DNA of 64,000 bases, taken from Escherichia phage ERS-1. Location of the stretch: the sequence record PP337211. One strand, given 5' to 3'. Shown here piece after piece: positions 1 to 64,000 of the stretch (position 1 is the first letter of the stretch; each line of letters opens with the position of its first letter). The notes below the pieces were generated by a model. The model saw only the letters and a list, made by a program, of their open reading frames with translations, had not been told where the DNA came from and searched no databases. Both the position numbers and the translations under genes were made by a program.

Positions 1-950
1 GACCTGGATGATGATGTCCGTCTGGCTTCCTGTGCCTCTACGCCGTCCTTGGTCTGGTCTCGCGGAGGAGCCCTGAATCTGCGGTTGGTCCCTTGTGGTT
101 CTTGCCCGTTCTCCCGTCCTCGTCCTTCGGGAAGTGGTGCGGCGACCGCTCGGTGTCGTGACGTAGCCGGCGGCCTTCGCCCGGGCTTCGGCCTTTGCCG
201 CTTCTCGATGCAAACGGCCTTGTGGTCGAAGGTGTCCGGGAGGGCCTGACCCTCCGGCCCCGCGGCCTCGAACCTCCGCGCCCCTTCCGCGACCTGGCGC
301 TGACCCTCCGGGCTGTTCGTGAACGGCCGGAAGCGGGGGCGTGCGGGCGGCCATCGGTCGGGAGCCCGAGCTTGCGCTCCTCCCCTCGCCCGCCTGTCCC
401 GGTAGGACCTGCCGGTAGATTTCCTTGGCGTCCTTGCGCTTGATCCCCGCCTGTCCGCCATCATCCGGTGGTTGTCGGTGTTCGGGTCGTTGCGGACTGT
501 CCCGGGCTTCGATTGTGGACCTGCCCTGCTGGTGCCCGTTTGGTCTTTGCCGGGTGGCGTAGTGGACCGCCTTGCGCGGCTCCTGCTGGCTGTAGTCGTT
601 GGACGCCCTGTGTTGGCCTTCCTCCGGGAGGTAGATGGCCCGCCGCGGCGGCGAACTCTTCCCCAGCCGGTCGCTGCTGGAGGTTCGGGTGTTCGCTGGA
701 CTGTCGCCCGTAGGCAGGCGCCGCGGTCCCGTCGCTTTCGTCTCTTCCCTTCCGGCGGCGGAGCTGGTCGAACGTCCCGTGGAGGCGCCGTTCGCCATGT
801 GGTCCGGGACGGACTGGCGAAGGTCGTGCGCCTTGTTTGCCTTCCGGCGCGTTCGAGGAGGCTCTGCCTCGGGTGGCTGATTGAGCCCTGGCTCCTTGTC
901 GATGTTGGGCTTGCCCTGGGAGGTTGTTCGGCTTGATGCCGATGTGTTCG
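1..950 (-). pseudogene. Frame-disrupted paralog of the small-gene cluster at 43,456-44,300; runs off the window edge
   Basis: Track ORFs 195..443(+) and 43874..44089(-) give near-identical off-frame peptides (…VEGV[R/Q]EGLTLRPRGLEPPRPFRD…); 461..1336(-) 'LRRRKGRDESDGT' matches 43493..43939(+) 'LRRRKDDESDGT'. Hand alignment shows substitutions plus indels. Confidence 0.35.
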
Positions 951-959
951 AGGGCGGGG

Positions 960-1790
960 GCGATCACCTCTGGCTTCCCGGTACGCTGCGGTGATCCGGT
1001 GGCCGGTGATCGACCGGACTTGGGCGTGGGCCTCCGTCTCCTTCTCCGCGCCGGGCTGGTCGGTTGTCCTGGCGGTCGCGTCGATTGCACGCCCCGGCGG
1101 CGAAGGCCCGTGAGGATCGGGGCAGGCCGGACTCCCTGGTGCAGGTTGCCCCGGGTCCTGCCGGACCTCCCGCTCCTGACGGCGGAGGATGTTGGGTGCG
1201 CGTGTCCTCCTCCGCGCACTTCCCGAGGCCTTGGCCGGAGGTCCCGGTTGCCCTTCTTCGGGCAATCCTGTACCACCGCGGCGGCGCGTGCTTCGTCCTT
1301 GCCGTGGAAGCCCCACCGCTCCGCGATAGCTTGCATGCTGTAGCCGTCGTGGAGTTTGGCAGTTGCGGGTCTGCGATCTGGATGTCACGGAAGTAGCGGA
1401 CCCGCTCCAACTCGAGTGCCGTCCCCGGCGAGGAAGTCCGTTGGTGCCAGGTTGGCCTCCCAGGTCGCCGGTGAGCACCTTTGCCGGGCGCGGAGGTAGG
1501 CCGGTACGCCCTCCGGCCGGTAGGTTGCCCCCGCCTTCGCGTCCGATGGGGAGTACCCGCCCGGGCCGTCCTCGATTGCGAAGCTGATGCCGGTGATGTA
1601 GCTGTTCGGCGACGGCCCGCCCCGGCCCCGAGCTCTCGAGGTCCGGTCCCCGCGTTCCTGCCGATGGCGACCCGCTCGGCCCTCCCACCAGGGAGGGTGC
1701 TGAGGTCCGGGGCCTCCCTGTCGCTGGAGACGGTCGTGAACAGGGTGGTTGGAGGTATGAGGCTTGGCTCCCACCTCCGCAATCATCTTG
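960..1790 (-). CDS. Hypothetical protein, frame-disrupted (segments …TTLFTTVSSDREAPDL…, …SYITGISFAIEDGPGGYSPSDAKAGATYRPEGVPAYLRA…, …LELERVRYFRDIQIADPQL…)
   Basis: High-GC3, protein-like segments on the minus strand in three successive frames, each displaced by -1. Confidence 0.3.
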
Positions 1791-4700
1791 CGCGAGGTTC
1801 AGGTGCCGCGGTCTGGCTCCGGGTCGGACTCCCGGAAGGTGAGGATGTGGACCGCTTCGGCTCCGTCCTCCGTCCTGCCCGTTCGCGGCGGCGAAGGCGT
1901 CCGGCATGACGACGGGGCGGAGCGGGGCGAGGACCCCGTTGCGGGCGCCGGACCCTCTCCCGTAGTGGATCGCCTTCTCGGAGGTCCTGGCGCGGGTCCT
2001 CGTGCTCTTGCGGTTGCGGGTCGCGCACTGGTCGCGCGGCCTTCGGTGTAGCGGAGGCCGTTGGTTCCTCCCAGCTCCTGTGTTGGACGGGCGAGCGGCA
2101 GCGCTCATCCGTCCTTGCTTTTCGTTTTGTCCTAACTCTCTTCCTTTGGTTTTGCAGCCGGAGCGTCTGCTGGCGGTAGTAATACCGGGAACCCCGCCTC
2201 CCCGTCGGTGTTGTATGGACCTTGCGGAGGTGCGCGAGTTCTTCCGTGTCGAAGGCGTAGAACTTCTGCTGCGGGCTCCTGCCGGTTGCTGGCCTCTCCA
2301 GTTGTTCGCGCACCACCTCCTCGAGAAGTCCGAGAGACGGCGATGCGGCTGGCGCTTCGCTGCCCGCAAGGGCGCACGGGTTCGGACTTCGGCCCCGCTC
2401 TCCCGTCACCGTCTTGCCTCTCCGGACGGCGCGACCGCTTCGTTGCCCGTGCTCCTCCCGGCGCTGCCCTGGTCGAGGGCGTCCGCGGCCTTTGCTGTCC
2501 TCCTCGTCGGGAGAAGGCCCGGGAGGTGCCTGGTCGCCTGTCGCGGCGTTCCGCGGCCTCCGTGCCCTTCCCCAGTTCGGGTGGTTCGCTCTCGCCGGGG
2601 CCGGCAATGTCGCCTGGCGGAACGCTCCGCGCAGTCGTGCCGCTTGGACCGCCTTGACAGGTTCGGCGACGGGTGCGGGTGGAAGGAGGCTCGACGCCGT
2701 AGCTGCGCTGGGCGATGTTGTACTGACCGTGGTGCGGGACGATGTGGTCCGGTGGACCGTCCCGGCCTCCCGGGTCGCGGCGATCCGGGCGGAGCGGCGG
2801 ACGGCGCGGCGGTTGGCTCCTCCGCCTCGCGCTCCTCGTCATGAATCTTGCTTCCCTGGCTTCCCTTCGTCCGCGTCTCCTCCCTGCCGCGCCGTCGTCA
2901 TTGCCTGGGCCTCGCGGGCCTCGAAGGCGGCGCGGCGGCGTTGATCCGTTTCCTTCCCCGGCCGTCTTCCCGTCGGTGGCGGCGACGTTCTCCGCTCGCC
3001 CCGGGCGGCGTCGAAGCGGAGGGGTTGGACGCTTGAAAGCCTTGTGGGCCTTGAGGTTGGGATTGCTCGCGGCGGAAGAAGGGTTGCGGAAGCCGTCGGC
3101 GTCCGGCTCGCCGGTGCCCGGCTCCTGGTCGCCTTCCTGCCGGTCCGTGGAGGCTTGAAGCGGAAGGGCTCCGCGATCCCGGCGGCGTAGGGGTCGGGCG
3201 TTCCTTCCCGGGGTGTTGGGTTGGCGGCGAGGTCCGCGAGCGGGCGACCTTGCCCAGTACCCTCATCGGCGTGGAAGTTGGCGCTGACTTGGCGGTAGAT
3301 GCCTTGTTGGCCCGAGGTCCGGCGACGTCGGCGGAGGTAGCTGAAGTGGACCGCGTTGGCCCCTGTAGGCTCCCCGGGTCCCGTCGTCGGAGCGGTTGGT
3401 GCGGTCATGTCCGGCCGACCGTCGTGATCTGGAAGATGGCCTGAAGGTTGGCAGGGGAGGTCCTTGCCTTGGCGGCCTGGTCCGCGTCCGCGCTCCTGTC
3501 CAGGACCTGGCGGTGGTCATCGCGGTTCGCCTTCGGGCGGCGATGATCTTGGGCAGTGGTCCTCGAAGAAGTGCTGGCGCCCTGCGGAAGCCGTAGGCCC
3601 CGTGGAAGGTCCTGCCGTCGTCCAGTAGCTGCGCTTGCGACCGGCGAAGCGGGGCGCGCATTCCGCGTCATTGCGTCTGCCCAGCATCCAGAGGCTTTCC
3701 ATCAGGTGGAAGAAGGGGTTGGCGTCCCGTTCTGCCCGGCGCGCTCCGCCGGCGGAGGCGCCGGTGGCGACGGGTTCCGGGCGTCAAGCGGGGCCGTTGC
3801 GCGAGTCGCGGCGGACGCCCTCGAAGGACCTGTCGAGAGGGCCTCCCGGGAGGGCCTGTTGTACGTTGCGGGCTTTGATGACTTTGTCTGTTAATTTGAA
3901 GATGACGTTGCCGGTCCGGCGAAGGACGCGGAAGCGGTTTGCGGGTGGTGCCCCGTTAAGCCGGCGTTCGGTTCGCGGATCGGGGGCGATAGCCCGGGAC
4001 GGCGATTTTAACCGCGAAGGGGCGGGCGAACTGCTCCGCCTCGGCCCGGTTTCATTGTTTCTGACCGTGGTGACGGAGTTCGTGACGGCCTCCGCGGAGG
4101 ACTTCGCCTTGGACTTCTCCGCGTCCGCTCGTCCCGGGCCTCTTCTAGGTGTCGGTGGTGGCTGTGGGCGCTTGGCGTGGTGTACCGGCGTTGTACTCGT
4201 GGGACTTGGCGATGCGGCGGCGCTCCCCGAGGTCGCGCGTGCGAAGCGTTGGCCCTCGAACTGGACCTTGACGTCGCCGTGGTCGGCAAGAAGCCGTCCG
4301 GCGCCTGCCCTTCCCGCTTGCGGAGCGGTTCCGGGTAGATGTCGTTGTACACGGCGTCCCCAGGGTGAACTTCTCCGCCTCCCTGGGCTTTTTTCGCGGG
4401 CCTCGAAGGCGTGCTGAGGACCCCTTGCCGCTCGCGGATGTAATTGGACCCGGCACCTGCCCGAACCTGGCCTCCAGTTCGTCGATGCCGCCGGAATGGT
4501 CCGGCGGCGAGGTTTCGATCCGGCGAGGGTGGTTGCCTTGCGCCGTGGTGCTCCAGCGGGTTTCTTGCCTTCGTCGGTGGTGCGCTTGCTCGTCGAACTT
4601 GGCGTGTGTTCGATGTCCCGGGCCTCGAACCGCGGCCCCCGCGCGGGCTCCCGAGCTGCGGCGGTCCGAAGGTTTCGTCGAAGCCCCGGGCGTCCGTGTT

Positions 4701-7484: not shown

Positions 7485-9811
7485 CGGCGTTAATTCGGCC
7501 CGGCTCGCCCGTCGCTTCCGGGCGGCTCCCCTGGCCTTCGTCTCCTCCGAACGCCGGCGACCGGCGAACTGCCCGGAACCGTGCGGCGACCCTTCCGCGT
7601 CGGGTCGTCTGGTTGTCCTTTTGGGACCCGAGGGTGAACGCTTGGGGTTGACGGTGGCGGTCGGTCGCTGTGAACCTGGCGTCACCGCTGTCGGGGATCG
7701 GCAATTGTTCGAAGGGCTCGAGGATAGCCGATTCCTGCCGCTTGTAGTCGATGTTGGCGTGTACCGTGCTGAAGTACCTGGAGCAGGTCGGGTCCTGTGC
7801 TCCCGTCTCCGGGTCCTCCTTACAGCGGGCGTTTAGGTGAGCCGGTCCGTCACGGTTACCGATGTTCGGGCGATGGGGCGTGGATGGACGGAAGCCTGTC
7901 GAGCGGGTCGCTGCGTTTCGGCTTTTGGGACGGTAACGGGTTGGGGAACGGGGCGGAGGCGTCCCGGGCCGCGTCCGCGTACCCGTAGCCCTCGTCCGGA
8001 TGGGTCGATCCGGTTGCCCGGTCCGGCCCGCGGCCTTCTCGATGTACTCCCGGCTGGCGTCCTGGCTCCGCAGATCCGCTTGTGGAGGATGACGTCGTAG
8101 TTGCGGAGGCTCGCCTCCTCCAAGCCCTCGAGTGCCCGGCGGCGACCGTCCCCCGAGCCGACACCGATGACCGGGTCCCGGCAGTCCGGGAGGTGCGGGG
8201 CGGTGCGGACGGCCTCCGCGGCGTTCTCCGTGATCGACTCCGGGAGCTTGGGGCGTTGGCTGTAGCTGTCGTGGTAGTTCTCCTGGTGCTCTGGCCGGAC
8301 GGGCGATCGCGGAGCGGCCCGCCGGGATGTCCAGGTCCGCCCCGAGCTGGCGAGCGTGCTGCTGTTGGACGCGCGGGCGTCCGCGGCCCCGTCGCGCTTG
8401 AAGCGGGGCCCGTAGTTCGCTTGCACCCGTTCCCCAGCTGCTGGCGTAGGCGACCGCCCTGCCCGCCTTCGAGCGGCACGTGTCCGGCTGCCGATGGTGG
8501 TTCTTCTGCTGGTCTCGATATGGGCGAGGCCCCGTGAATCTCGCTGAAGGACGGACCCGGAGCGCCCTGCTCTCCCGCTTCAGGATCGGCACCCCGTCAG
8601 CTGGTGTTCGACCGGGGCGTCGTTGACGATTGTTGCTGCTCTTGGGCGTGGTCGAGGAAGGCCCGTGCGGCGGAGGCGGCCTGCCTCGGTCGAGCCCGCC
8701 GTCGATTTCCCGGATGTCGTTCCGGGTGGGAGCTGGCCCTTCGCGGGATTTTCCGGTTTGCCGCCGCACCGTCTCCACCTTCTGGATGTTCGGCGGGCGG
8801 TTGCCGGGTGGGGCGAGGTCCGCGAACTGCCGGTTTGTAAGTCCGCGACCCTGGGCGATCGCCTCGCGCTTGGGCTTCGCGTTCTCCGGGTACTCGTGAG
8901 CCTCGCGCCGCTCCGCCGTCGCGGCCTTCTCCGGTCCTTGAAGCGAAGACGGCGGCGTTGTCCGAGTCCGCCGGCATCTCGACCGGTTCCGGCTTGTCGC
9001 GATCTTGAAGCTGATCGGGACTGAAGCCGTTGTGCTCCTGGGCGCGGGCGGAGACGGTGCGGAAGGGGCGCTCCTCCTCCGTCGCCCGGGCTCCCCGGTG
9101 GGTGCCCCGCCTCCCGGGCGGTCGCCGAGCGGGCCTGGAGGGAGGTCCCGCAGTCGGCGGTGCGACCCTGGCCTGTAGCGGCGGCGCTCGCGTCCCCGGA
9201 GGCCTGTGACCCCCGGCGGGCGTCTCCTCCTCGTGGTGGGCCGCGACGTCCCTTTGCGGAACCTCGCCCTCCTTCTCCAGGAAGGAGGCGACCCCGGCGT
9301 GGAGTAGCTCCAGGTTGAGGCTAGCCTGTGGGCGGGTGGAGAAGTCCCCCGCCTGCCCGCGCCGAACCAGGGCCGTGCACACGGGGTCGGATCGCGGTGG
9401 TGATCCGGTGTCGGCCGGGAACGTCTCGATGTCCGGTTGGGGCAAGTTTCTGCCGTGTCTTTTCTCTGGTATGCGTGACCGATTTTCCCGCTCGTGTCCT
9501 TGCACATGTCCGGTTGGGTAATTGGCGACTGAAGGAAGGCTCCGTGCGGACTTCTTCGTTGACGTGAATACGGGATGGACCGTCTGCCCTTGCCGTCGCC
9601 GTCCTCCGTGATCCGGGTGAATCCCGCAGGTAGCTTGAGGGCTCCCTTCTGTATCCCCGCTCCGCCGGGCACCTCCGGCGGAGGGTAGCCGCGTGCGCTC
9701 CGAGGCTCCCAGTGGCCTTGCCCTGCTTGGGCTGGCGGGCTACCGGCGGGCGTCCTGCCTTCGGCGGACTTCTGCGGCTCGTGGGCCGGGATCGCGTGGC
9801 CTTCCGGGACC

Positions 9812-48543: not shown

Positions 48544-48552
48544 CCTGAACCG

Positions 48553-50139: not shown

Positions 50140-50406
50140 TTGCAGAACCGCTATGAGCTGGAACACGCCCTTCCGTCTCACCGGAGATGCCTGACCGCCG
50201 CCCGGGCCGTCCGCATCCACGGCCACGCCCAGAAGGCGGAGCTGGAACGCGAGTTTCAGGAGCGACTGAACGAACTCGGCGGACGCCCAGGAGCAGACCA
50301 GCCGGGCCTGGCCGGTGCTCTGAACGCCGCGGACCTCCCGATGGAGGAGCTGGGCGAGTGGGAGCTGGACGCGAGCTATTGGATGACCCCGGCTGCGCCT
50401 TCCTGA
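50140..50406 (+). CDS. Hypothetical protein (MQNRYELEHALPSHRR…AQKAELEREFQERLNELGG…)
   Basis: ORF 50140..50406; protein-like composition, one of the few segments without an obvious frame break. Confidence 0.4.
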   Translation: MQNRYELEHALPSHRRCLTAARAVRIHGHAQKAELEREFQERLNELGGRPGADQPGLAGALNAADLPMEELGEWELDASYWMTPAAPS

Positions 50407-53400
50407 GCAAGCGCGAGGCGGAGGACGCCCGCCCCTCCTTGGGCGACCTCCTCCGTCGTTGCACGGCCTCGGCTAGGCACCTCCGAGGAGCCCGACTATG
50501 ACAAGGAGCCCGATCAGAAACCGCTGCCGATCTTCGCCCTCGCCCTGCTGCCCCTCGCCCGCTCGCGGTCCGGAGGACCGCCCCCGCAGAACGCCGGGAG
50601 ACGGTCCGGCGTGCGGGTTGGCGGCTCCTCGCCTCGCCTCGCCCCTCCGTCCCGGGTCCTCCCGGCGGAGGTCGGGGCGAAGCCGGACCCGGCCCGCTTC
50701 GAGCGGCTGGAGTGCTGCCGCGACCCGCCCGACCCCTGGGTGCCGTATCGTTTGCGAACCTCGGAGAAGGGGTCAGAAGATGGAAAACCGGAAGAATTAC
50801 CCGCCTGGGCTGACGAAACCTTCGGCAGTGAAGCACCCGGTGGAAGTCGCCGCCGCGGATGAACGTGGAGGTGGCGGAGCTGGTCGCTGGCCTTGCCACC
50901 GTCGCCGCCGTCCCGGTCGGAGGATGGACCCGGAGCTGGTCCGGGAACTCCGGAAGGAGTGCGCGGACGTGTTCGGTTGCTCGCCCGTCGCGGAGAAGCT
51001 GGACGTGGACCTTTGGGTCTGTGGTGAACTTAGGGATGGGGGTGCACCGCTGCTGGGCTGGACCCGGAGCCCGTCCGGAAGATGTGCGTGGAAACCTTCC
51101 TGGACCCCGGAAGCGGGCTGAAATGGAGCTGGAAGGTTGACCTTCCCCTGCGACTCGGGGCTCTTTGCTGGGCTTCCACTCCGCCGACGTAGCCCTGAAC
51201 TGGGTCGGTCCGCGGCAGGGGATCGCCGCCGAGCGGAGGACGCCGTGGTGCCGACCTTCCGGCCGGGGCTTCTTCGAGGGCCTGACGGGCGTGAAGGTTG
51301 TACCTGGGCCGCGAGCTGCGCGCCTTCTGGAAAGCCGGACCCTGTGCGAAGGAGAACCTGGGACGTCACGATGGCGGGTGTCCAGGCCCGCCTCGGGCGC
51401 AACCCGGAGGACCCCCGCAAGTACCAGGTGACGGTCCTGGTGTATAGCCAGTTTGCCCCGGCCTGAGCCTCCACGGACATTGACCTGGCCAGTGCGCGAG
51501 CCAGCACCCCTTCCAGCCGATCGGGACGGCGGAGCCGCTTGCGCGGAGTACCTGGGGAGAAGTACGGCGACAACGACCCCGCGGCGGCCTCCCGGGATGC
51601 GGTCCGCGCCTTCGGGAGGAGTGCCGCTTGATGGCGGAACTCGCCCGCGACGTACCCGGAGAAGCTGAAGCGCCTCGAAGCCGACGTGGCCAAGCTGTCC
51701 GGTCAGAACCCGGCCCGCCGCGCCGCCTGCGCCACCCGTGGATCCCCGCGGAGAAGCTGCTGCCCGCGGGAAGTCGCGTGGCTGAATCAGCGCCTCGGGA
51801 ACTCGGAGGGCCTGCTGTGACGGACCTGGACGAAGCGGCCCTGGCCGTTCTGTTCGAGGAGTAACCGGTACGCTTTCCGGTCGCGGACTGGGAGGAGTTC
51901 CTGGTCATTGCCCGGGCGTCCTCGCCTCGGAGCGGGTCCGCTGCCGGTCGGCGCTGGGAGTATTTTGTGGAGGACTACCTGGAAGCCGATCTGCGCCGCC
52001 TTCTCCTCGCCGGCGGTTGTCGTTTGCATCGCCCGCCTGGCGATCCCGGGACCGCGACCGCTCCGCTGAAGGAACTCCCGTGGTGGAGACGCCGGGCGCT
52101 GCTCGCCCTCCTCCCGAAGCCGGATGACGAGGGTCCTGATCCGGGGCGGGAGAGGTTGATGATCGAGAGAATGGCACCCGGGCGGCGGTTTTTCGGCAAC
52201 CTACGCCCTGAAGAGGGCGAGGAGGCTGCGCGGGTGCTTGGGCCGCGGCCTTCGAGGCGATTGCCCTGATCCCCTCCGCGAAGCCGGAGGAGGTCCTGGG
52301 TTACCTGGACCTGCGCGTATGGGCGTCCCACCGCGGATGAAGTTCTGACGGTACCCGGTCGCCCGCCGGGTGGAGTTCCGCCGGGCTCGCCTCGCGCGTG
52401 CCCTTCGCGGAGATTCAACGCCAAACCGCCCGCGGGGCCTTCGAGGACTGACCATGATACGCTTTGACAAGTCGAAGCCTACGTGGGCGACTTCCTGAGC
52501 GAACTCCGCGGGACGGGGCCTGGGCGGAACATCGTGAAGGACTCGCCCGCCCAGCTCGGCCCTACCCGGAGCGGGCGCTGTGGACCGGGAGGCGGCTCGC
52601 CTTCCTGGGCGAGCCCGGGACTACCGCCTGGAGCTGCGCCGGATCGAAGGCGGGCACTGGGAGGCGATCCGCGAGGAGCGCGACCCGGACCGCTTCAACC
52701 TGCTGATGAGTCGACCTCGCGTAAGGAGGGCGACGCCATGAAACCAAGACTGAAGCGTAGCGCCCCAAACGGGATGCAGGAGCCGGAAGGCGCAGCGGGT
52801 GCCGCCGGTGAACCTTGACGCGGCGATCGCGGGGCCTCCGCCTTCTCGCCTTCGCCCTGTTCCGTCCGGGCTGTCGTGGAGGCTATCGTGGACCTGCGCG
52901 TAGACGGCCCGGTGTCCGACGGCGACGGCTCCGCGGCGACCTCCTGGGAGGAGCTGGAGCGGTCCTGGGGAGGAGACGGTGGAAGGTATGAGGGCCGGAA
53001 CTTGAAGGAGAACCGGGCTGGGAGCTGTGCTGGCATCGTCCCGGAGGTTCCCTTTGTTGGAAGAGGTGACGGGCTACGCCCGCGCCTGCCCTGGAGGCCA
53101 GAATTCCGTTTCGGGATGCGGGGTACCGAAGGAGTGAGAGATGGATCGGAGCGAGTTCTGAGCTGGCTGCGGAGCCTGTTCGGCGGACGCCCGCCGCCCC
53201 GCCGCCGGAGTCGGACTGATCGCCTGGCCCGGATGATGGCCCCGGGCTTCGAACCTTGGCTGCCCCTACCCGGAGAACTTCCCCTTGGAACTTATCGAAC
53301 TGTGGGGGCGTGGTGAAAAATGATTCGACCGGTGACCTTCTCTGGGCGACCGCCTGGGGTTCGGAGTCGCCCGCCTGGTGCACCCGCCCTCCGGCGGAGG

Positions 53401-53809
53401 CACTGCCTTGTGGCTAAGGTCGAAAACCACCGCCAGTCCTTCCGGATGTCGCGGAATGGCCGTGGCCAGTCCAGTTTGCCCCTGGGCGCGCCTGGTCGCC
53501 CCGCGTCGCCGCCTGGCCCCGCGGCATCGTCCTGATCCAGGAGCGGACGCGACCCCTGCCCCGGCGGCGAACTGCCGAAGGCAGCTGCCCGACTTCTTCA
53601 CCGACCTGAAGCCGGAGAACTTCGGCCTGATCGACGGTGGTGGCGGTGCGGCATACGCCCTCCGCCTCGCCTCCTCGAACCTGGTTGGGGAAGGCGAAGA
53701 TGAAGAAGGTGAAGAAGGACGAATGGCGACTGCCTGACAAGATCCATGCCCGATGGGAACGGAGCTGGGGCGGAAGTGTTGAGGCGACGGCACGCCGCTG
53801 CTGAGTTCG

Positions 53810-54260
53810 GTGATCCGGGCAGGCGCGGCCGACTTCGCGGACGCGATGCGCCTGGAAGTGGAGAAGAAGCGGGCGGAGGGCCGGCGGTTGGACGATCTTA
53901 CCCGGTGCCGGCTGGATTCCCTCGCGGTGATGCTGCTGGATCGCCTGGAGAAGGGCGACCCCGTGGACGGTGCCTTCGCCGGCGCCGCAGACCTACCGCG
54001 GCGACGGAGCGGACGGGTGGGCCCTCCGTCCTCGGGGCGACCTTCCGCGAATGGCTGGATCTCCGCCTGGAGGCCCGGGACATCGTTGCCTCAACCTCCA
54101 AGCCGCTTGGAAGGCCGCGGCCCGGATCGCGGAGCTGGAGGGGATCGCCGGACGCCTCGAAGGCGAGCGCAACGAGGCCCGCCGGTCGCTGGAGGAGGAG
54201 CGGGAGGTGTTCGGGCAGGAGCTGGAGGCGGAGCGGACGCCCGCCGCCGGTCGGAGCTGA
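53810..54260 (+). CDS. Hypothetical protein(s) with a coiled-coil segment (…DFADAMRLEVEKKRAEGRRLDDLTRCRLDSLAVMLLDRLEKGDP… / …AARIAELEGIAGRLEGERNEARRSLEEEREVFGQELEAER…)
   Basis: Two high-GC3 segments in frames offset by -1. Confidence 0.3.
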
Positions 54261-54712
54261 ACCTGGCCCGTGCCGGAGGGGTTCACCGCGTGACGGAAGG
54301 CGAACCGCCGCTGCCGGGAGTGCGGGCGAGGTCGGCGCAGCGGGTCGGAGGTCGGCCGGGCGGTACCGGATCGCCGCGGACCGCGCCTTGACCTGGGCGA
54401 ACCCCGCGACCCCTATCAATTCCGCCGATGGCCCGCCGGAAACCCCGCCGCGGGGAGTACGTCTGCCGCGGGGCCTATCCGGTTCCCGCACCGCTTCGCA
54501 GGCGGTCGCTGCTCGGGCTACTTCATCGCCGTGGAGCAGCGGAGTTGGCACTAGGGGACCGGCGACTGCCGCCTACTGTAACTGCCTCAACCGGACGGAG
54601 GCCGTGCCCACTGCGAAGTGGTGGAGGGCGGCGAGTCGGTCCAGGAATGCCCCGTGTGGCAAGAGTTTGTACGATTCAATGAGATCAAACTGAAGAAGGA
54701 GAAGTGAGATGA

Positions 54713-55030
54713 GTGATGACAACACGATGGACAGGCGTGATGATCGACCTGGAGACGATGGCGACCGGCCCCAGCGCCGGGGTCGTTTGTCGGGGCCATC
54801 CGTCGTTCAACTGCCGAACCGGATTGGTGAAGCCGGACCTGTTCGAGGTGGACGTGGACCTTCACGCCGACGCTGGGCGGCGAGGTCGATGCTTCCGGCG
54901 GTCGGTCTGGCGGGACCAGGTGGACCCTGCCCAGCGCTGGCCGAAGGCGATGCGCTCCGCGCTGACCGACCTCGCCCTCCTGGTCGGGGTACCCGGACCG
55001 AAGCGGGTCTGGGCCGGGGCTGTCCTTTGA
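54713..55030 (+). CDS. Small protein with N-terminal 'GVMIDLET' motif; possible RNase H-like or DEDD-type nuclease (speculative)
   Basis: GAAGGAG SD upstream of ATG 54,709 / GTG 54,713; uninterrupted high-GC3 frame to TGA about 55,028; the 'IDLET' Asp-x-Glu resembles exonuclease motif I. Confidence 0.3.
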   Translation: MMTTRWTGVMIDLETMATGPSAGVVCRGHPSFNCRTGLVKPDLFEVDVDLHADAGRRGRCFRRSVWRDQVDPAQRWPKAMRSALTDLALLVGVPGPKRVWAGAVL

Positions 55031-57244
55031 CGTTGCCATCTAGGGTTACTATCGCCGGCGGGCGTCCCGATCCCCTGGCATACTCCGCGCTGATGCTGAC
55101 ACCCGAACCGTGTATGACCTGGCGAAGGAGCGGGGCTGGTCGAAGCCGGAGGGGGAACGGGGCCGTTCTGCCGCCTGGAGGACTGCCGCTGCCGTACCCT
55201 TGCCGTCCATCAGCGCCCTGAACGTCCTCCGGGGCAGCCTGAAGGAGAACCCGGTAATTGGCTGACGAATCGACTTGAAGGATGGAATTCCCTTCCCCCC
55301 TTGCGGACCGCGAAGTGGCCCGGATCGCGGAGGAGGCGGCGACACACCGCCCGGGAGCCGGCGACTGTGACCTGTGTGGCGAATGGAGCGGGAGGCTGGT
55401 GGAGGAGTCTGTGCGCCCTGTCGGACCGCCCGGGCTTTGCCGGTGAATCGAAGAAGTTGTATGAGGGCTCTACTTCTTGCAGGCCCCCCGCCACTCTCCT
55501 TCGTTGCAGGTACCGGCCTGAAAATGGAGAACGGCGATGACCTGGATTTCCGCCTCCAACCCGACACCCGCGCCACTGCCCCGCTTCGTGGCCGGTTTCA
55601 CTGTCCTCGCCTCTGGCGGTAGCCCTCCGCGACCCTCGGCTACGCCTTCAGCCGCTAGAGCGTGGTTCCTGGCCTGGTCCGGCGACTCTGCATGGCATGC
55701 TGGAGGATGTACCGTGAAGGACGTGTACTGGAACCTGGCCCACTACCCCCGTCTGGAAGGCTCGGGTGCCCCCGCCCTCGCCCTCCGAAGTTCCTGGCGT
55801 CATCCCCGACCGTCGCCCGAATTGAAGCCCTGGGTGGAGTTCCGCGCCCCGAAGGCTGCGCCGGTGGTGAAGGCGGGAGCGCTTCTGCCAGGGGCGCCGG
55901 GTGCCCGCCCCGCGCCCGGGCTGGCCAGTCCTGATGGAGCTGGCAAGCCCTGGTCCGCCGCTGCTCCATGGTCCAGCCCCGCGAAAGTCCGGTCGGCGTA
56001 GGAAGGACGGAACCGATCCTCGCCGGCGAGCGCCTGGGCTCGCCGCGGGCCTTCGACCACCACCCGGGTTGAAGGAGCCCGCGTGTATCTGGAAGGATGA
56101 GCCGCCGCTGGAGGGAAAGGCCCGAGGAAGATGGAAGCGAGTACCAGAAGCGGGAGGGCTCCGGCCCTCCCCCCCGCGGGTCGAAAAAAGTTGTCTGCTG
56201 GGCTGACCTTCTTCGGGTTGGGTCACTTTTTGTTAGGCCGTAGAAATGGAGAACTGAAATCAGCCGACTCCCGCCCAGGTCGCTGCCCGCGAACTGATCG
56301 CAGGCTGGGGCTCGCCTCGCTGGGCGATGTCCGGGTTGTCAAGCCGCTGACCCTCCCGGCCGGAGTACCTCCGCGGCCCGCTCCTTCGCCGGTGACCGCG
56401 CGATCCGCCGGATCGGTGCCGGTCCTCCGCGGGACGTCCCCCTGGCAGCTGATCGGCTTCGGACCTCGCGGAGGTCGCCGGGCCCTCTGGAAGTCGGCTG
56501 CCGTTGACCGGGAGGGCCTGGCTCTCCCCCTCCCGGAGAAGGAGCCCCTTGTGAACCGGTGGCCGCCTTCCCCACCCCCTCCCCTCGTCCCCACTCCTGT
56601 TCATCGGAGTCGGGGAGCTGGGGCTGCTCTTCACCCTCCGCGAGACGGAGCTGAAGGCCGTCCCGGGTCCTGGCCCACGGACGCGGTGGTGAATGGCGTG
56701 TATCGGGGTCCTCCGAGGTCCGTGCTCCCGTGAAGAACCTGAGCCGGGACCGACGAAGCCTTCGAGAAGGCCCGGAAGCCTCTGCAGCGTATGGGCCGAG
56801 CCGGTGACCTCCCGCGACTCCCTGCGCGAGGAAATGAACGCGATTCACCGCGTGACGCTGCGGAGCTGGAGCGCCGGGAGCGCGAGCGGAAGGAGCGCGA
56901 GGACCGCCTGGGCCGCGGAACGGGCCGCGGAGGAGGAGGAGAAGCGCCTGTACCTTCCTGGGCTGGAAGTTTGCCTTCGGACCTACGCGTGGCGAGTTCC
57001 CAGGCCCCGCGGGCTGGCCTCCGCCGGTCGATCCAGCCTCCGGACTTCGAGGAAGGTGGCCTGATGCGCCTGACCGCCCGTGAGGTCGCCCGCCGGGTCC
57101 CTGTCCTCGCCCGCCGAAGCCGAAGCCCGACCTGTACGTGGGCGAGCCGAGAGTGCATCACCTTCGACGTGACCGTGGTGCGCCGTACCCTTGCGCCCGT
57201 GACGCCTGGAACGGCTACGGTATCGAGACGGTCCAGGCGTTGCG

Positions 57245-57603
57245 ATGATCGACCGCGCGACCGGGGCCTGCCTCGTGTCCAAGTCCGGGGCCTTCTACGC
57301 GGAGGAAGGCGAGGAGCTGAAGATCAAGGCCACCGTGAAGGAGCACGCGGAGCACCGCGGCCAGGCCCAGACCGTTGTCCAGCGGGTCGCGGTGCTGGAG
57401 GACTACCGGATGCGCCGGGAACCTCTCAGCTCGCGGTTGTTCGGAGGGCGAGCTGTACGCCGCCTGCACCAGGACCCCCTCACCGGGGCTCTTACGCAGT
57501 GGCCTTTGCCGGAGCCCTCGGGGAGGCCCGGCCGTCGCCCTCGTTGACTGGACTCGCTGAAGTGGACGGGTCACCTGCCCGGGCTTACCGCGTGGGTGAT
57601 TAA
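57245..57603 (+). CDS. Hypothetical protein (MIDRATGACLVSKSGAFYAEEGEELKIKATVKEHAEHRGQAQTVVQRVAVLEDYRMRRE…)
   Basis: ORF 57245..57547; long high-GC3 segment; 3' end uncertain. Confidence 0.4.
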
Positions 57604-57876
57604 GCTTCGCGCTTGGCGGACGCCCTCGTGCGATCCTTCGGAGCTGACCGGGCGTTCCGCGCGTCGGGCGATGAGTTCGCCGTTATGGGTGATAGCCGTG
57701 AACGTCTGCCCGGGCTCGCTTCTCCGCGCGAGGGTCCGGGTTTCTGCTTCGGACGGGGATCGGAGGCGGCGGAGGCGGACGGCGACCTGGCGCGTCGAGG
57801 GGCGGAGGGGGAGCGGTCCGGCCTTCGGGGCCGCGCGAGGGCTCCTCGACCGCCTTGGGGTCGATCATCGACCTCC

Positions 57877-57918
57877 GGGGGGCTTTACTTCTTCGGAGGC
57901 CCCCCGTCACACTTCTTT
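57877..57918 (+). promoter_or_regulatory. Recurrent motif inside a G6/C6 hairpin (GGGGGG-CTTTACTTCTTCGGAGG-CCCCCC), followed by CACACTTCTTTG
   Basis: Stem 57,877-57,882 / 57,900-57,905 with a 17-nt loop carrying the motif; could be a terminator, a promoter element, or both. Confidence 0.4.
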
Positions 57919-58106
57919 GTCGGGCGGTCCGGACCCGGAGAACGGCTGCCGGGGCGGCTGGGCATTTACTGTCTCCCCTGTCCAGGCCACGGACCTGCGC
58001 CTCCAAAGTTCTCCCGACCTTCTTTCGGGCGTGACTTCCTCCGGGTCCAAACGGCCCTGGACCGCCTCCTTAGATGGCGGAGGAGTAGGACGGTGCGCAC
58101 TGGTTC

Positions 58107-58360
58107 ATGTACAAGCTGTCCAACGGTGCGACTGACCTGGCCCCGGCGATCACCGACCGGAAGCTGCGACTGACCGTGGACACCAACGGCTACGGGCGAG
58201 GTCAGCGGAGACGCCGCGGGCCTGATCGCCTGCCTGTTCGTGTCAACGCCCTCGCTGGAATACCCGCAGCGCCAGGACTACGTGGACCTGTCTACAAGCC
58301 GCGCGACTTCGCCTTCGACCGCCGCAGGCTGAGGAAATCACCGCTGCCTTCGACCTGATA
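58107..58360 (+). CDS. Hypothetical protein (MYKLSNGATDLAPAITDRKLRLTVDTNGYG / EVSGDAAGLIACLFVSTPSLEYPQRQDYVDL…)
   Basis: ATG at 58,107; two high-GC3 segments separated by a -1 shift. Confidence 0.35.
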
Positions 58361-60896
58361 CCCTCGGCGCAGCCGACCGCCCCAACTTCCCGGCAAGGAG
58401 CAGATGACCGGTAGACCGCCCCCGGACCAAACCTCCTGCAGGAGACTTTCGTTGGTGTCGCCCCTGACGTGACCGCCCGCCGCGTCCGTCCTGGGCGACT
58501 TCAGGTGCGCCTCGGCGACCGAGTCGATGCCGGCTTCCGTCCTTCGCCCCGGGCGGAAGTCGGACCCGGCGACCCTGAGCTGGAACCCGTTGGCCCGTTC
58601 ACGCTGAAATGGCGACCCCGCAGGGCCTGCACATCCCGGCCGAGGTCCGGCTGGAACATCGCCTTGCCCGCCACTTCGACCGCCTGCTTACGATGGTCGG
58701 TGGACCCCCTCTGTAAGGTAGAAAAGGAGCCCGCGATGGCTGGGCGAGCCACCGCCGTTGGGAGAACCCTCCGTCACCTCCGCGACTGCGCGGAGCCGCG
58801 CACCCCCTGGGCGGATCCGGAAGCCCGCGCCCGGGCGTCCTCCTCCAACTCGCCGTGGAGGCGGCTGGAGGAGGTCGGGTGACGATCACCGCCGCGAGCT
58901 GGACGAAGCCCGAGCAACGCGGGAGGTGAGTGATGAGCGGACGCTACAAGGTCCTGGCCGGGTCCCAGTGCCCGGCCACCGCCGCTCGACTACACCGTGG
59001 TGGATGTCCGGAGCCTTTGCCCGCGGGCGCCTCGGGTGCCGTCGATGCGACTGCGAGACGTTTGGCGAGGAGGAAGCCCTGCGGTTGCCCGCGCCCGAAC
59101 GCGGCGATCGGCGAGTTGAAGTGTACCCTCGCCCGGGCCGCTCGCCTGTTCGAGGAGGCCCTGCCGAAGTCGTGCTGGGCGCCAGCGCCCTGGACGCCGG
59201 CGTGATCCGCTGCTTGGTCAGGTCCCGGCGAAGTCCGCGCGGCCCTGAAGGCTTGCGCCCTTGTGCGGAGGGGAAGTGCCCCGTACGGCCCCGAACCGCC
59301 CCTGGGCGAAGGAGGGCGGAGCATCACCCCCGGGCGCTGACGCCCTGATCCTGAGTTCGTGTCGACCTGGGCGGCTAGGGGTCAAGCGGCTGAAGGACCG
59401 CCGGGCGAAGATCGCCGGCTGTTCGCCCCGGGACGGACGGAAGGCGACCGCCTGGCCCTGTACGTCGCCGGGCGGGCGACCCTCCCGCTTCGACGCGGCC
59501 CGCTGCGCCGGTACGCGCCCGCCGCCCGTTGGACCTCTGCCGCGTGACGACCTAGGTAACGGCTCCGCCCGCGTGGTGCCGAAGTCGTAACGAGACCGGA
59601 GAAGGAGAAGCGGCGAAGCGGGGAATCTACCGCGGCCCGATCCCTGCCCGATTCGGCAGACCTGCGCTGCTGCGCGAGGCGACCCGGCCATGCTCGTGGC
59701 GGTTCGATGACGGAGCCTGACCCGGAGCGGCGACCCGATCCCGGCGGAGAAGCCCGAAGGCCCGCCCGCGGACGCCCTGGGCTACGGCTCGCGCCTTCCC
59801 GGCGGAGGACTTCGAGGAGAACCGGACCTGCCCGACCTGCGAGGCGACCGGCTTTCGGCGGCTCGCGCCGGGTCCTGACCGCTGTACCTTCTGCGACGGG
59901 ACGGCAAGGCGGGAACCCGCCGGAGGAGGACGGCGAGGCTGCCGGGGTGCCCCGCCCGACCGCCCGCGCGCGGTCGGTGACCTCCTCCGTGGGCATGACC
60001 CGCGACGGCTACCGGCTCGCCGGGTGGTTGTCGAGTGCGAGGACGGCGCTGTGGCGAACTCCGCCAGGAACGAAGCCGGGACTGATCCTGGGTCCGGCTC
60101 CCGGTGATCCCGGGAGGTGAACGATGTCCCTGGCTGAGTTCGAGGACCGCGTGGCGGATCCCCTGCCTCATCGTGGTCACCACCGGGAGCCCTGACGTGC
60201 CCGCGAAGTGCTGCGGCCCGCCTGAAGATCGCTACCCGGCGGAAGGCGGATGCGGTGAATGGGAAGTCCGCGACCGCCGCGGACGCCCGCCCCCTGGCCT
60301 GGAGCGGGGTATGACGGAGGCGGAGCGCGAAGCGGTTGACCTGGCCGTGTTCGATCCGTGCGGAGGACCGGCGATGACCTGCGTGCGCGTCCCCGGGGGT
60401 CGCTTGCCGTCGCCCTCTTCCGGCTCCGCCTCGCGGACGGCTCCTGCGCGTCGGAGCCCTGCCACCTGCGGGCTGCCTCTTCCGCGACCGGCGGCTGGCG
60501 TCTTCACACGAGTGGTGGAGGACCCCTGCGATCTGCGCCGCCCTGGACTGGTCCTTCAACGAGGAAAACGGGCCGACCGCCCTCGCCGCGGGATGCCCCG
60601 CCGGGTGGTCCCGCGGTGCCGACTGGTCGAGTCGGAGGCCGAAGGCTGCGGAAAACCGGCGGGCTCCCCCTCCTTCTCCCTTCCACCGGGTGCGCTTGGG
60701 TTACGGGAGTGCGCTTGGGTTCGGCTCCAAAAGTATGAAGGGGTGCGTGGCGGGAAGTTGTAGCCGTCTGGGGTTCCTGCCTTGCGCTTAGGTTACTTGG
60801 GATTCTTACCTGAAACAAATTTGCCCAGGGTTGACCCGGCGGACCGGCCTGAGAATCCTTGTTGAGGCTTCCGGCTGTCCGAGGGCTTCCTGGGGC

Positions 60897-60943
60897 TAAG
60901 GTAAGTAAGTTAAGTAAGTTAAGTATCTATCTATCTATCTATC
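60897..60943. repeat. Compound microsatellite (TAAGT/TAAGTTAAG)n followed by (ATCT)5
   Basis: ctaaggtaagtaagttaagtaagttaagtatctatctatctatctata, in an AT-rich intergenic stretch upstream of the packaging-like operon. Confidence 0.7.
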
Positions 60944-60974
60944 TATAAAGGGCTGTTTTATATGGCCTTTTTGC

Positions 60975-60992
60975 CCGCTTGACTTTTTACTT
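60975..60992 (+). promoter_or_regulatory. Degenerate copy of the recurrent motif (CTTTTTACTTTTTCGG)
   Basis: Sequence similarity to CTTTACTTCTTCGG; about 240 nt upstream of the 61,229 start. Confidence 0.3.
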
Positions 60993-61228
60993 TTTCGGAC
61001 GTGGAAGTGAAGCGCGACCCCTCGAACCTAAGCGGAGGACGCCGCGTGCCTGCTTGGGTCTGTTGCCCGTCGCTCCCGCGCCTCCCCCGCGGGCGAGCGC
61101 GACCCGCCCTTGGCGAACGCAGGCTTCGCCAGACTCGCGGCGAGGATGTCCTTGGGCGTGAGGCCGGGACGGATCGCCGCGTGATGCGCGATTGACGGGC
61201 GGTGCTGCCCAAGGGGGAGGTGATGTGC

Positions 61229-61551
61229 CCATTGAGAAACTGAAGCCGAAGCCGATGGTGCCCTTGCCCTTGGATGGAAGCAGTACCTGGAGTTGTTCCG
61301 CACGTCCCGACCTGGGTGGGTGGAAGTACCGTGCGCGGAGGCGTGGGCGTCTCCGGCTCCGCCGTTCCACTATGCCGTTGAAGAATGACCCGGAGTTTGC
61401 CCTGGCTCTGCAGGACGCCCGCCAAGCGTGGATTGATGAGATCCTGTTGCGCGGCCCTGAAGCGGGCGCGGGACGGCGCGGCAGCGCCCGATCGGTCGGG
61501 GAAGTTCAAGGACGAAATTATTGGATGAGCGGGTGTACTGTGATTCGCTGA
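61229..61551 (+). CDS. Small protein upstream of the P-loop gene, terminase small subunit position (…MPLKNDPEFALALQDARQAWIDEILLRGPEAG…)
   Basis: AAGGGGGAGG SD before GTG at about 61,229; stop TGA 61,549-61,551 overlaps the next ATG (TGATG). Confidence 0.4.
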
Positions 61552-63178
61552 TGGCCTTGACGCTCCGCGCCCGCCGTGCGGAGTTCGGGAGGACGGGAGG
61601 ACGTGGCCTGTATCACTGCCCTCGGCCCGGTGGGCGCCGATCGTCCCGGGCCCCGGCGTCGACCGGACGACTGGGAATTGTTTGGGACCTCGCCCGCGGG
61701 ACCGTGGGCCGTCCGACCGGGAGGGCGATGTTCGCCTGGTCCCAAGCGGGCAGGCGGTTGCCATCGCCGCCCGCCCGGACTACCCGATCGAGCGGCGCGA
61801 GGCGGAGCCCGGCGAGCTGCGGGCACCACGTGGACCCGGAGACGGGAAGGAGTCGGAGGCGACCTGGTGCGGGTACGGGTTGCAGCTCGCCTTCCTCGGC
61901 GTCCCGATCTTCGAGGTGCTGTATGAGGGGACGCGCGGCCCGGGCAAGACCGACTGCCGATGGACTTCCTCCAGCACGTGGGGAAGGGCTACGGTTGGAG
62001 CGGCGGGGTCCCCGTTCCGTCTGGCAGGGACCCCCGCTGTCGGACGTGATCAGACACAAAACCAACAAGTGGTTCAAGCGTTTCTTCCCGGCTAAGTACA
62101 GGCAAGGTGGGTTGGCGACCTTCCCGGCACGGCGAGGAGCTGCTGCTGTGTCGGCGGTCGCCGGAGGATTATTGGAACTACCCACGGCCACGTGCCCGTG
62201 GATTGGCTGGGAAGAACTCTTGGGCTGGGCCTGACAGCGCCACCGTTGCGACGTCCTGCCGCCGCTCCCAAGCCGGGGATGCCCCGCCGCGACCCGGGCG
62301 ACCGGCCCCACGGCCCCGCCCCTGGCTGGGTCAGGCCCGCTCCCGCCTCCCCCGTTGCGCGGTCGGGTGATCCTGGACGCGATGCGAGACGGCGAGCGCG
62401 AACCGCCCCGGGTCGCCTTCCCGGTTCCTTTCCCATGAGAACCGGGTTGCTCCTCGCTGACCCGGAGGGCCTGGTATTCGAGCCGCGGCCCGGAACCCCT
62501 CCGACTCGCCGCCTGGCTCCACGGCTCCTGCAGGTTGTTTGCGGGAGGATGTTGTACGAGGCTTGCACCGCGGGACGCACCGCGGCGCCCTCCGTCCCGC
62601 TGTCGGTGATCCCGAAGCGGTGGAAGATCGACCTGCGGCTTCCACCGGGCCGGAGCCCTTTGCCGTCCTGTGGTGGGCGGAGTCGAATGGGAGCCGTTCG
62701 AGCGGAATGGCCGCGTGTACGGAAGGTGCGGGGGCGATCTGTACCTGATCCTGTAGCGGGTACGGCTGGAACGGGAACGCGAGCAGGGCGTCCTGCGGCT
62801 CGCCTCGGAGGTCGCCCAGTGGGTGAAGGACCGGGAGGAGGATTGGGCGCTGGAAGGTCGGGTCAGCCCTGGCCCCCGCGACCTTCTCCTCACGTGGAGG
62901 TATGGGGCCTGGATTGCTGTGGAGGCGGAGAGAGGGTGTGCGCCTGGACGCCCGCGGGAGGCTGGGCTCGCGGGTGGGCTGGGAGGGGTTGGCTGTCGGA
63001 GGGCGCTGCCTCCGGCGGCGGGGACCGCGCCAGGTCCCTGGGCTGTTCGGTTTTTTCGACCCGTGCTGGTGTCGTCCAGACGGTCCCGCGCTGCCCCGCG
63101 ATGAGGTGTACCTGGGATGACGTGAAGGCGGAGGCGGAGGACCGGTTGGTGACGCGACCGCTACCGCGTGCGGGGTAA
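61551..63178 (+). CDS. P-loop NTPase, terminase large subunit-like (putative), copy B, frame-disrupted
   Basis: ATG at 61,551; Walker A 'YEGTRGPGKTD' at 61,921-61,950; then -1 shifted segments LPMDFLQHVGKGYGWSGGVPVP, LSDVIRHKTNKWFKRFFPAKYRQ, …SVIPKRWKIDLRL…, …VEWEPFERNGRVYGRCGGDLYLIL; sits upstream of the capsid gene by synteny with copy A. Functional call is an inference. Confidence 0.4.
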
Positions 63179-63189
63179 GCTGCGTGGTG

Positions 63190-64000
63190 CGGTGGTGGCC
63201 CGCAGAGGCTCGGCCGGGTCCTCGCCTTCGGGCGAGAATCCGCGAACCTGGAGAACCGACGGCCGGCGAGACGGCAGCCCTGCCGACCTGCGGGGCGTAT
63301 TAACCGCGCTCCCGCGCTGGCCCACGCTCCAGACGCCGCCTGGGCGGGACCGAAGGGCGCGCGAGGCGGGCGAGACGTACCTACCCCGCCCTCGGAGGAG
63401 ACGGCAGGGTGGGCTATCGGGAGCGCCTGGCCTCCGCCGCTCCTCCTCGGCGGTTGAACCTGGGCGCCTGGACCTGCCCTGCAGCGGAGCCCTTTGCCAG
63501 CCGATCAAGCCGGCCAGGACGTGCCCGGAGGCGATCCAGGAGATGATCCTGCCTGACGTGGACCTCCTGGGGCTGCCCACGCGTTCGCCCGTCCTGTGGT
63601 TCCGCCAGCCTATCCGGTGAGGCCCTGGCCTCCTCGTCCAGACCGCCTCGCCCGGCCCCGCGGAGGATGGCCTACCCGGACCTGGCGGATGACCGCCGGG
63701 AGGGCCTGCGCCCTGACTGGGTGATGATCCAAGCCGGAGGCGCCCGCTGTTGGCCCGGTCGGAGGTGATCAAATGGGGCCCGAGTCCTCTGCGTGCTGCT
63801 GTCCAAGTTACGAGGCGGAGGCAGGACGGCTTCGCGCAGGCTTGGGAGCGCTGTCCGCGTCCTGGAGCTGGGCCTTGTCCCGGCTCTGGCAGCCGGTGAG
63901 AAGTTGGTGGTCCCGCAAGGAGGAGTGGGTGCTGGCGGATGAGCGGGCCATGGGGCTGAACCACGTCCCTGTGGTTGCCTTTACGCACCTGAGCTAAACC
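63190..64000 (+). CDS. Hypothetical protein, partial; portal position by synteny; continues past the window
   Basis: Plus-strand high-GC3 segments after the TAA at 63,176-63,178; no motif recognised. Confidence 0.2.

Follow-up and report, generated by a model that had tools for sequence, protein, structure and literature searches.

A 64,000-nt window with two inverted Yuavirus copies reads as a chain of nanopore library molecules rather than as a genome

The window analysed here, by which we mean the whole stretch of 64,000 nt, is made up of two long phage arms in opposite orientations, separated by a junction of 630 bases (42,708-43,339). By blastn, each arm follows the ~62 kb Yuavirus genomes of the Pseudomonas phages PaTs-2 and PAE1 in collinear order at ~80-83% nucleotide identity. 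In the junction, native barcodes 08, 03, 02 and 07 and ONT ligation adapters flank two tiny extra inserts. The features are given below in window coordinates, with read and molecule assignments that are putative.

1-42,707, minus strand: Yuavirus genome in a putative raw, uncorrected nanopore read (read 1, barcode 08), from blastn against PAE1 and PaTs-2
112-897, minus strand: overlap 1, copy in the left arm (arm A), DNA polymerase gene; matches 43,382-44,191 at 75%
40,037-42,336, minus strand: overlap 2, copy in arm A, TerS, TerL and the start of the portal gene; matches 61,454-63,770 at 69%
42,708-42,752, plus strand: read 1 barcode adapter, AGGTGCTG then ONT barcode 08 then TTAACCTTAGCA; edit distance 5/39
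42,753-42,791, plus strand: garbled ligation-adapter bottom and top strands between molecules 1 and 2, from alignment to the expected design
42,792-42,831, plus strand: molecule 2 barcode adapter, AAGGTTAA then barcode 03 reverse complement then CAGCACCT; edit distance 5/40
42,832-42,956, no strand assigned: molecule 2 insert (barcode 03), 125 nt, flanked by both BC03 adapters
42,957-43,021, plus strand: second barcode 03 adapter and complete ligation-adapter strand GCAATACGTAACTGAACGAAGT; edit distances 6/39 and 1/22
43,022-43,080, plus strand: adapter top-strand remnant, then molecule 3 AAGGTTAA, barcode 02 reverse complement and CAGCACCT; edit distance 5/40
43,081-43,225, no strand assigned: molecule 3 insert (barcode 02), 145 nt, T4-like (Tequatrovirus) coliphage fragment, from database match
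43,226-43,269, plus strand: second barcode 02 adapter, AGGTGCTG then BC02 then TTAACCTTAGCA; edit distance 0/39
43,270-43,339, plus strand: garbled adapter strands, then molecule 4 AAGGTTAA, barcode 07 reverse complement and CAGCACCT; edit distance 8/40
43,340-64,000, plus strand: same or near-identical Yuavirus in a putative raw nanopore read (read 4, barcode 07), from blastn maps

Read 1 is truncated by the window edge inside the DNA polymerase gene, window position 1 corresponding to PAE1 46,919. From there it passes back through the genes for replication, modification, tail and head and then through TerL and TerS into the region upstream of TerS, the phage sequence reaching the adapter at 42,708. 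Read 4 begins midway along the DNA polymerase gene (PAE1 45,949), continues into the primase and early genes, and passes the record boundary at 61,058-61,097 into TerS, TerL and portal before it is cut by the other window edge. By blastn, PaTs-2 covers 98% of the right arm at 83.2%, and identity to dozens of different Yuaviruses has a ceiling of 82-83%. Genome-wide collinear similarity to type members places the sequenced DNA in Yuavirus, and the window resembles phages of this genus (PaTs-2 MH791403, PAE1 NC_028980, M6 and YuA; Mesyanzhinovviridae) in being collinear with a ~62 kb unidirectional genome. The PAE1 HNH gene is missing from both arms.

Comparison of the whole window with itself by blastn yielded exactly two large off-diagonal inverted matches, namely 40,037-42,336 with 63,770-61,454 (69.2% identity, 2,454 columns, E=3e-178) and 112-897 with 44,191-43,382 (75.0% identity, 829 columns, E=9e-122). 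A third inverted pair, of 40 bases (43,040-43,078 and 43,230-43,269), consists of the two copies of ONT barcode 02, the second barcode 02 adapter pairing with 43,040-43,078. Mapping onto the reference phages widened the homology to ~1-960 with 43,340-44,320 and ~39,900-42,707 with 61,060-63,986. The original prediction had placed inverted matches at both locations, where a dot plot was expected to reveal them, and had derived an anchor difference of ~59.4 kb; both matches are present in self-blastn and in the reference mapping, and the computed offset is 59,511 bases (41,439 + 18,072). The ~4% shortening of this offset relative to a 61.8 kb genome arises because deletions outnumber insertions. 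Mapping likewise upholds its geometry, in which one phage genome of ~60 kb is present as two partial copies, opposite in orientation and circularly offset, and the alignment to related phage genomes that it proposed found each arm collinear with a single Yuavirus genome (blastn). A fold-back (template/complement) read was considered and ruled out, as the arms meet at PAE1 ~62,145 and 45,949 and not at one point.

Adapters and barcodes in the junction were detected by a bit-vector edit-distance scan, and the layout was then aligned to the expected kit design. Barcode adapters were found for BC08, BC03 (twice), BC02 (twice) and BC07 at edit distances of 0-8 of ~40, as compared with one match in total in 60 shuffled controls, and barcode 07 was the only barcode to fit the molecule 4 adapter (8/40). 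Native barcodes with their kit flanks (AAGGTTAA-bc-CAGCACCT or AGGTGCTG-bc-TTAACCT) are paired around the inserts; the sequence of barcode 08 with flanks is given in PMC5534310, and BC03 and BC07 are listed in PMC6290886. The ligation adapter GCAATACGTAACTGAACGAAGT, a documented ONT sequence, is internal at 43,000-43,021 with one error in 22, and the other two joints hold noisier remnants. Between these adapters, the 125-nt barcode 03 insert is T-rich (~33% GC) and had no match among phage records, while the 145-nt insert matched 743 T4-like records (93.8% over 95 nt), agrees perfectly with T4-like coliphage over its first ~80 nt and is unrelated to the arms. The DNA flanking the internal adapters is thus unrelated from piece to piece, in the order Yuavirus, AT-rich fragment, T4-like coliphage, Yuavirus.

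The coding content of both arms is disrupted throughout. PAE1 proteins match in all three frames at 30-45% identity, against ~81% at the nucleotide level, every tested protein being split across three frames, and there is no intact homologous ORF among the PAE1 proteins tested, so that the window does not offer a usable Yuavirus genome; it differs from the Yuavirus genomes in that no ORF survives and identity is held to ~83% by read error. Gap runs occur at ~42 per kb, and the length of 89% of these is not divisible by 3; deletions (5-6%) and insertions (1.5%) relative to the reference are accompanied by substitution rates that ignore codon position (0.114, 0.122 and 0.120 at positions 1, 2 and 3). 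In this 68% GC sequence, gene calling based on GC3 detected hardly any coding signal because errors shift the reading frames. On the window plus strand, recall was 0.56-0.71 for A and 0.90-0.93 for G, with changes to A at no more than 1%, and this spectrum is shared by the two arms and by each 8-kb bin despite the flipped gene orientation. A spectrum that stays constant on the window strand while gene orientation flips therefore indicates single-pass reads, and the profile is indeed strand-asymmetric, frame-blind and deletion-rich. The signature of evolution (codon-3 excess, indels in threes, a gene-strand-linked or symmetric spectrum, clock-like branches) is absent from the arms.

Raw-read quality of this kind is typical of unpolished overlap-layout assemblies, and a mis-join by an assembler, such as an unpolished long-read assembly with two phage reads inverted, would agree with the 'chimeric assembly' proposed in the original prediction. 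However, a mosaic of reads would mix orientations, whereas the error asymmetry keeps one sign across all 64 kb, and the joint holds two complete mini library molecules (125 and 145 nt) that no overlap-based assembler would chain. We consider a mis-join very unlikely, although an assembler could have passed a chimeric read through unchanged.

A three-way comparison with PaTs-2 gave private differences of 14.0% and 14.4% for the two arms and shared differences of only 2.7%, and, in phage coordinates, the substitutions private to one arm have a spectrum complementary to that of the other arm. Of 94 sites that distinguish PaTs-2 from PAE1, 66 are concordant between the arms and 11 discordant, roughly as expected from the error rate. 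Both arms carry the same alleles and represent one same or near-identical phage read twice. The shared alleles place this phage near PaTs-2, with some sites PAE1-like, and in the overlaps the phage itself departs from PaTs-2 by only some 2-3%. The mutual divergence of the arms (25-31%) very probably reflects two independent error-laden reads, each ~17-19% off the true sequence.

These comparisons also bear on whether the arms could be related or decayed prophages lying head-to-head in a bacterial chromosome and diverged as paralogs, possibly with an inversion. The inverted and patchy similarity of 69-75% with independent indels would suit such a pair, all genes are broken as in decayed elements, and a replication-strand mutation bias extending over the whole chromosome might in principle operate in the frame of the window. 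However, 14% private against 2.7% shared differences would require copies evolving far faster than their free-living relatives, and ~42 indels per kb together with 78% miscalling at one dinucleotide correspond to no known mutational process. The whole window is phage or adapter, with no host DNA, host flanks, attachment sites or integrase-bounded junction; the annotated genes of PAE1 and PaTs-2 all lie on one strand, and no prophage is among the matching blastn records. Prophages are, in our assessment, extremely improbable. While the geometry of the original prediction stands, and 'chimeric assembly' was among its candidates, its headline of paralogs or prophages does not: the supposed divergence is read error that is blind to codon and frame, strand-asymmetric and private to each arm, and the supposed prophage joint or inversion is made of nanopore adapters, four barcodes and a T4-like fragment.

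Exact-match searches of viral, genome and metagenome collections returned no hit to this sequence. Taken on its sequence, the window is very probably not a genome but a chain of four complete ONT library molecules from one multiplexed native-barcoding run, preserved as raw basecalls, and the head-to-head join and the divergence are best read as sequencing artefacts and not as biology. The chain would run from a Yuavirus read of >42.7 kb (barcode 08) through a 125-nt fragment (03) and a 145-nt T4-like fragment (02) to a Yuavirus read of >20.7 kb (07), the source of the Yuavirus DNA being, on this account, an M6/YuA/PAE1-like Pseudomonas phage. The head-to-head and circularly offset picture would follow from opposite entry and different genome start points of the two long molecules. 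Consecutive molecules that passed through one pore and were left unsplit are the most likely joining step, while plain concatenation of the reads in a file that had not been demultiplexed would give an identical picture. Alternatively, library preparation may have linked the four molecules covalently, so that they were read as a single strand. Such joins between barcoded molecules are documented (PMC5600009) and all pieces are contiguous in one sequence, but at each joint the bottom and then the top strand of the sequencing adapter lies between the barcodes, which indicates that the molecules were already finished library molecules, and adapter-to-adapter ligation via motor-loaded ends is not expected. 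A physical chimera is thus unlikely and is a sub-variant of the same artefact that leaves the verdict unchanged.

Unsplit or chimeric nanopore reads across barcodes are a documented artefact (White et al. 2017, PMC5600009; Wick et al. 2018, PMC6245502), and the window resembles them in its internal adapters and barcodes, mixed barcodes, unrelated adjacent inserts and single-pass error profile. It differs in the unusual length of the chain, with four molecules and two reads of >20 kb, and in an error in the phage parts that is far above that in the adapters and the T4-like insert. An overall error of ~18% is high for a run with a perfect 80-nt T4-like stretch and one perfect barcode; this contrast needs an extra inference, namely modified phage DNA, whose hypermodified thymidine would be the source of much of the error.

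The errors are unevenly spread over sequence contexts, with 65% falling at 5'-CA-3'/5'-TG-3'. The T of 5'-TG-3' was called correctly in 22% of cases and miscalled in 78%, as compared with 82-96% correct in other contexts; TC sites were called normally (0.85-0.96), and only TG is affected. The 5'-TG-3' sites with this massive miscalling make up 33% of T on one strand. A general basecaller bias against A was also considered and ruled out, as the adapters and the T4-like insert are correct at A, CA and TG.

This clustering probably reports, as an indirect basecalling signature, the thymidine hypermodification known in the Yuavirus/M6-like group. It is about an even chance that, on the strand threaded through the pore, nearly every TG thymidine is hypermodified while TC is spared, in which case the errors would map the modification at single-molecule resolution. 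The adapter construct is symmetric and the same for either reading direction, but the near-complete copy at 43,000-43,021 looks more like the start of a minus-strand read because adapters at the start of a read tend to be more complete than those at its end, which is the only hint as to the strand. Had the plus strand of the window been read instead, the miscalled base would be the A of 5'-CA-3'; this is less likely, and we know of no description of adenine modification in Yuavirus/M6-like phages.

For M6-like phages, 5-NedU is predicted at ~30% of T, and restriction data pointed to TG/TC contexts (Lee et al. 2018, PMC5889632; Flodman et al. 2019, PMC6449724). The 33% of one-strand T miscalled here is close to that prediction, whereas TG alone and not TC is affected, in a signature that consists of basecalls with the strand read being inferred. 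We looked for the 5-NedU cluster (hydroxymethylase, 5-hmdU kinase, PLP enzyme and radical SAM enzyme) and found, in a part of arm A collinear with PAE1 36-44 kb, matches to the PAE1 'photolyase' (6.0-7.4 kb) and 'thymidylate synthase' (2.9-3.9 kb), with frames that are unreadable through the errors. A literature search returned no paper pairing 5-NedU with nanopore basecalling.

Here we have traced an apparent inverted duplication to what are very probably chained raw nanopore reads. As a genome feature the window is of no importance, and it should leave catalogues of inverted duplications, prophage pairs and novel 'diverged' phage lineages; left in, it would pass as a new species at ~80% identity. 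The lesson is that windows should be checked for sequencing adapters and frame-blind divergence before repeats are read from them. The only biological value is indirect: the error pattern provides a cheap and testable hint that the thymidine hypermodification of M6-like phages is aimed at TG dinucleotides. If true, TG targeting would be the sequence specificity of the 5-hmdU kinase pathway in Yuavirus and would explain the ~30% of modified T in M6.

Comparison of the window with itself by blastn detected two large inverted off-diagonal matches, between 40,037-42,336 and 63,770-61,454 (69.2% identity, 2,454 columns, E=3e-178) and between 112-897 and 44,191-43,382 (75.0%, 829 columns, E=9e-122), and a 40-base inverted pair (43,040-43,078 and 43,230-43,269). 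The original prediction, that two diverged partial copies of one phage-like element are joined head-to-head, was reproduced in its coordinates, its patchy identity and its anchor offset of ~59.5 kb. Megablast matches to phage records were confined to the Yuavirus group (Pseudomonas phages PAE1, PaTs-2, M6, YuA, LKO4, MP1412 and others), in which the matched genomes are ~62 kb and, for PAE1 and PaTs-2, have all annotated genes on one strand. The layout was the same for PaTs-2 as for PAE1, with fewer pieces; each arm thus aligns collinearly with one genome.

Placement of the window on PAE1
1-42,662, minus strand: PAE1 46,919 down to 29
43,340-61,094, plus strand: PAE1 45,949 up to 62,181
61,097-63,986, plus strand: PAE1 3 to 3,614
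40,531-40,647 (left arm) and 63,143-63,308 (right arm): TerL-portal sites lacking the HNH gene, by comparison with PAE1

Sequence common to both arms lies in the DNA polymerase gene, in the middle of which the right arm starts, and in TerS-TerL-portal. A net loss of ~4% through deletions shortens the ~62 kb expected to an apparent period of 59.5 kb. An HNH endonuclease gene located between TerL and portal in PAE1 (2,265-2,882) is absent from both arms, as from PaTs-2, and this is a real structural difference common to both reads. Short segments (e.g. 24,802-25,126, 35,146-35,485 and 7,485-7,943) match neither reference. The phage sequence of the left arm (read 1) ends upstream of TerS (42,560-42,707), ~36 nt past PAE1 record position 1 (PAE1 ~62,145); this stop possibly corresponds to a physical end of the genome (pac/cos region), because a random break within ±40 nt of that position has a chance of roughly 0.1%. 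The right arm (read 4) passes without a break through the PAE1 record boundary (61,058-61,097), which implies a concatemer, terminal redundancy or permuted molecules.

Oxford Nanopore sequences were recognisable on inspection of 42,541-43,500. An edit-distance scan of the entire window with kit-design patterns produced matches confined to the junction between the arms, with a total of 1 match from 60 shuffled controls.

Kit sequences at the junction (BCnn, native barcode; rcBCnn, its reverse complement)
42,708-42,746: AGGTGCTG-BC08-TTAACCT, edit distance 5/39
42,792-42,831: AAGGTTAA-rcBC03-CAGCACCT, edit distance 5/40
42,957-42,997: AGGTGCTG-BC03-TTAACCT, edit distance 6/39
43,000-43,021: ligation adapter GCAATACGTAACTGAACGAAGT, edit distance 1/22
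43,041-43,080: AAGGTTAA-rcBC02-CAGCACCT, edit distance 5/40
43,226-43,264: AGGTGCTG-BC02-TTAACCT, edit distance 0/39
43,300-43,339: AAGGTTAA-rcBC07-CAGCACCT, edit distance 8/40

Full alignment of the expected 'end-of-read plus start-of-read' design recovered all three joints. Documentation exists for BC01-07 with the GGTGCTG/TTAACCT flanks (PMC6290886), for bc08 with flanks (PMC5534310) and for both ligation-adapter strands (Porechop_ABI preprint). The 40-base inverted pair corresponds to the two BC02 adapters. Between these lies a 145-nt insert (43,081-43,225), a piece of a T4-like (Tequatrovirus) coliphage whose first ~80 nt match such phages perfectly; unrelated phages were thus present in one run, which was basecalled accurately on this T4-like DNA. 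The 125-nt insert between BC03 adapters (42,832-42,956) is T-rich (~33% GC) and had no match among phage records.

The window is thus almost certainly a raw-basecall chain of four finished library molecules, which bear barcodes 08, 03, 02 and 07 and derive from a multiplexed native-barcoding run. Both sequencing-adapter strands are present at each joint, indicating complete library molecules and making consecutive molecules in one pore, left unsplit, the likeliest origin. Reads that were simply concatenated would give an indistinguishable sequence, and ligation of molecules is less likely than unsplit reads. Cross-barcode chimeric reads are a known nanopore artefact (PMC6245502, PMC5600009). 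A fold-back read is ruled out as the arms join at different genome coordinates. The original interpretation is supported in part: the predicted geometry of two offset, inverted partial copies stands, and its candidates included a chimera. The prophage, inversion and paralog readings are ruled out: the joint is synthetic, no host DNA is present and the error signature speaks against them. As a genomic feature, the head-to-head arrangement is not real.

The 'divergence' of the arms is not evolutionary in origin. Identity to dozens of distinct Yuaviruses levels off at 82-83%, PAE1 proteins match the same stretches of the window in all three frames, with identities of just 30-45%, and no GC3 coding signal was found in the window sequence of 68% GC. 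Gap runs relative to PAE1 number ~42 per kb, 89% not being multiples of three. Left-arm substitution rates relative to PAE1 were 0.114, 0.122 and 0.120 at codon positions 1, 2 and 3 and 0.123 in non-coding sequence, with similar right-arm rates. Substitutions and deletions are strongly strand-asymmetric, identically on the window plus strand in both arms despite the flip of coding strand, and with constant sign in every 8-kb bin: A is recovered at 59-69% and G at 92%, changes to A are ≤1%, and deletions reach 5-6% vs 1.5% for insertions. In three-way alignment of the overlaps with PaTs-2, private differences were 14.0% and 14.4% and shared differences 2.7%, the private spectra being complementary in phage coordinates. 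Of 94 sites that distinguish PaTs-2 from PAE1, 66 had the same call in both arms (52 PaTs-2-like, 14 PAE1-like) and 11 had conflicting calls, approximately the error-rate expectation. The two arms are therefore noisy readings, made independently, of a single phage or of near-identical phages.

The phage arms are much noisier than the adapters and T4-like insert. This excess is concentrated: within CA±2 lie 31% of positions but 65% of all errors (error 37% vs 9% elsewhere). The plus-strand A of 5'-CA-3', equivalent to the minus-strand T of 5'-TG-3', is correct in only 22% of cases (n=3,587; called G 29%, deleted 24%, T 16%, C 10%), and A outside this context in 82%. All NTGN contexts are miscalled alike, and the pattern is concordant between both arms and both references. 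CA and TG are correctly called in the insert and adapters, so the miscalling stems from the phage DNA itself. A milder T-to-C excess at the plus-strand T of 5'-TG-3' (15.5% vs 6% in other contexts) could reflect an opposite-strand modified base, the behaviour of the basecaller or true CpG/TpG polymorphism with respect to the references. Adapter symmetry precludes proof of read direction, although a single hint that the minus strand was read comes from 43,000-43,021, where an adapter copy of unusual completeness fits a read start on that strand. We infer that the minus strand was read and carries hypermodified T at nearly every TG.

In M6, ~30% of T is replaced by 5-(2-aminoethyl)uridine (5-NedU), as predicted likewise for PAE1, YuA and relatives (PMC5889632); TG accounts for a similar 33% of minus-strand T here. 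Restriction data pointed to TG/TC contexts for the modification (PMC6449724), whereas T in TC is called normally here (correct 0.85-0.96). The TG-specific error signature, a probable mark of hypermodified thymidine at TG, alone merits follow-up.
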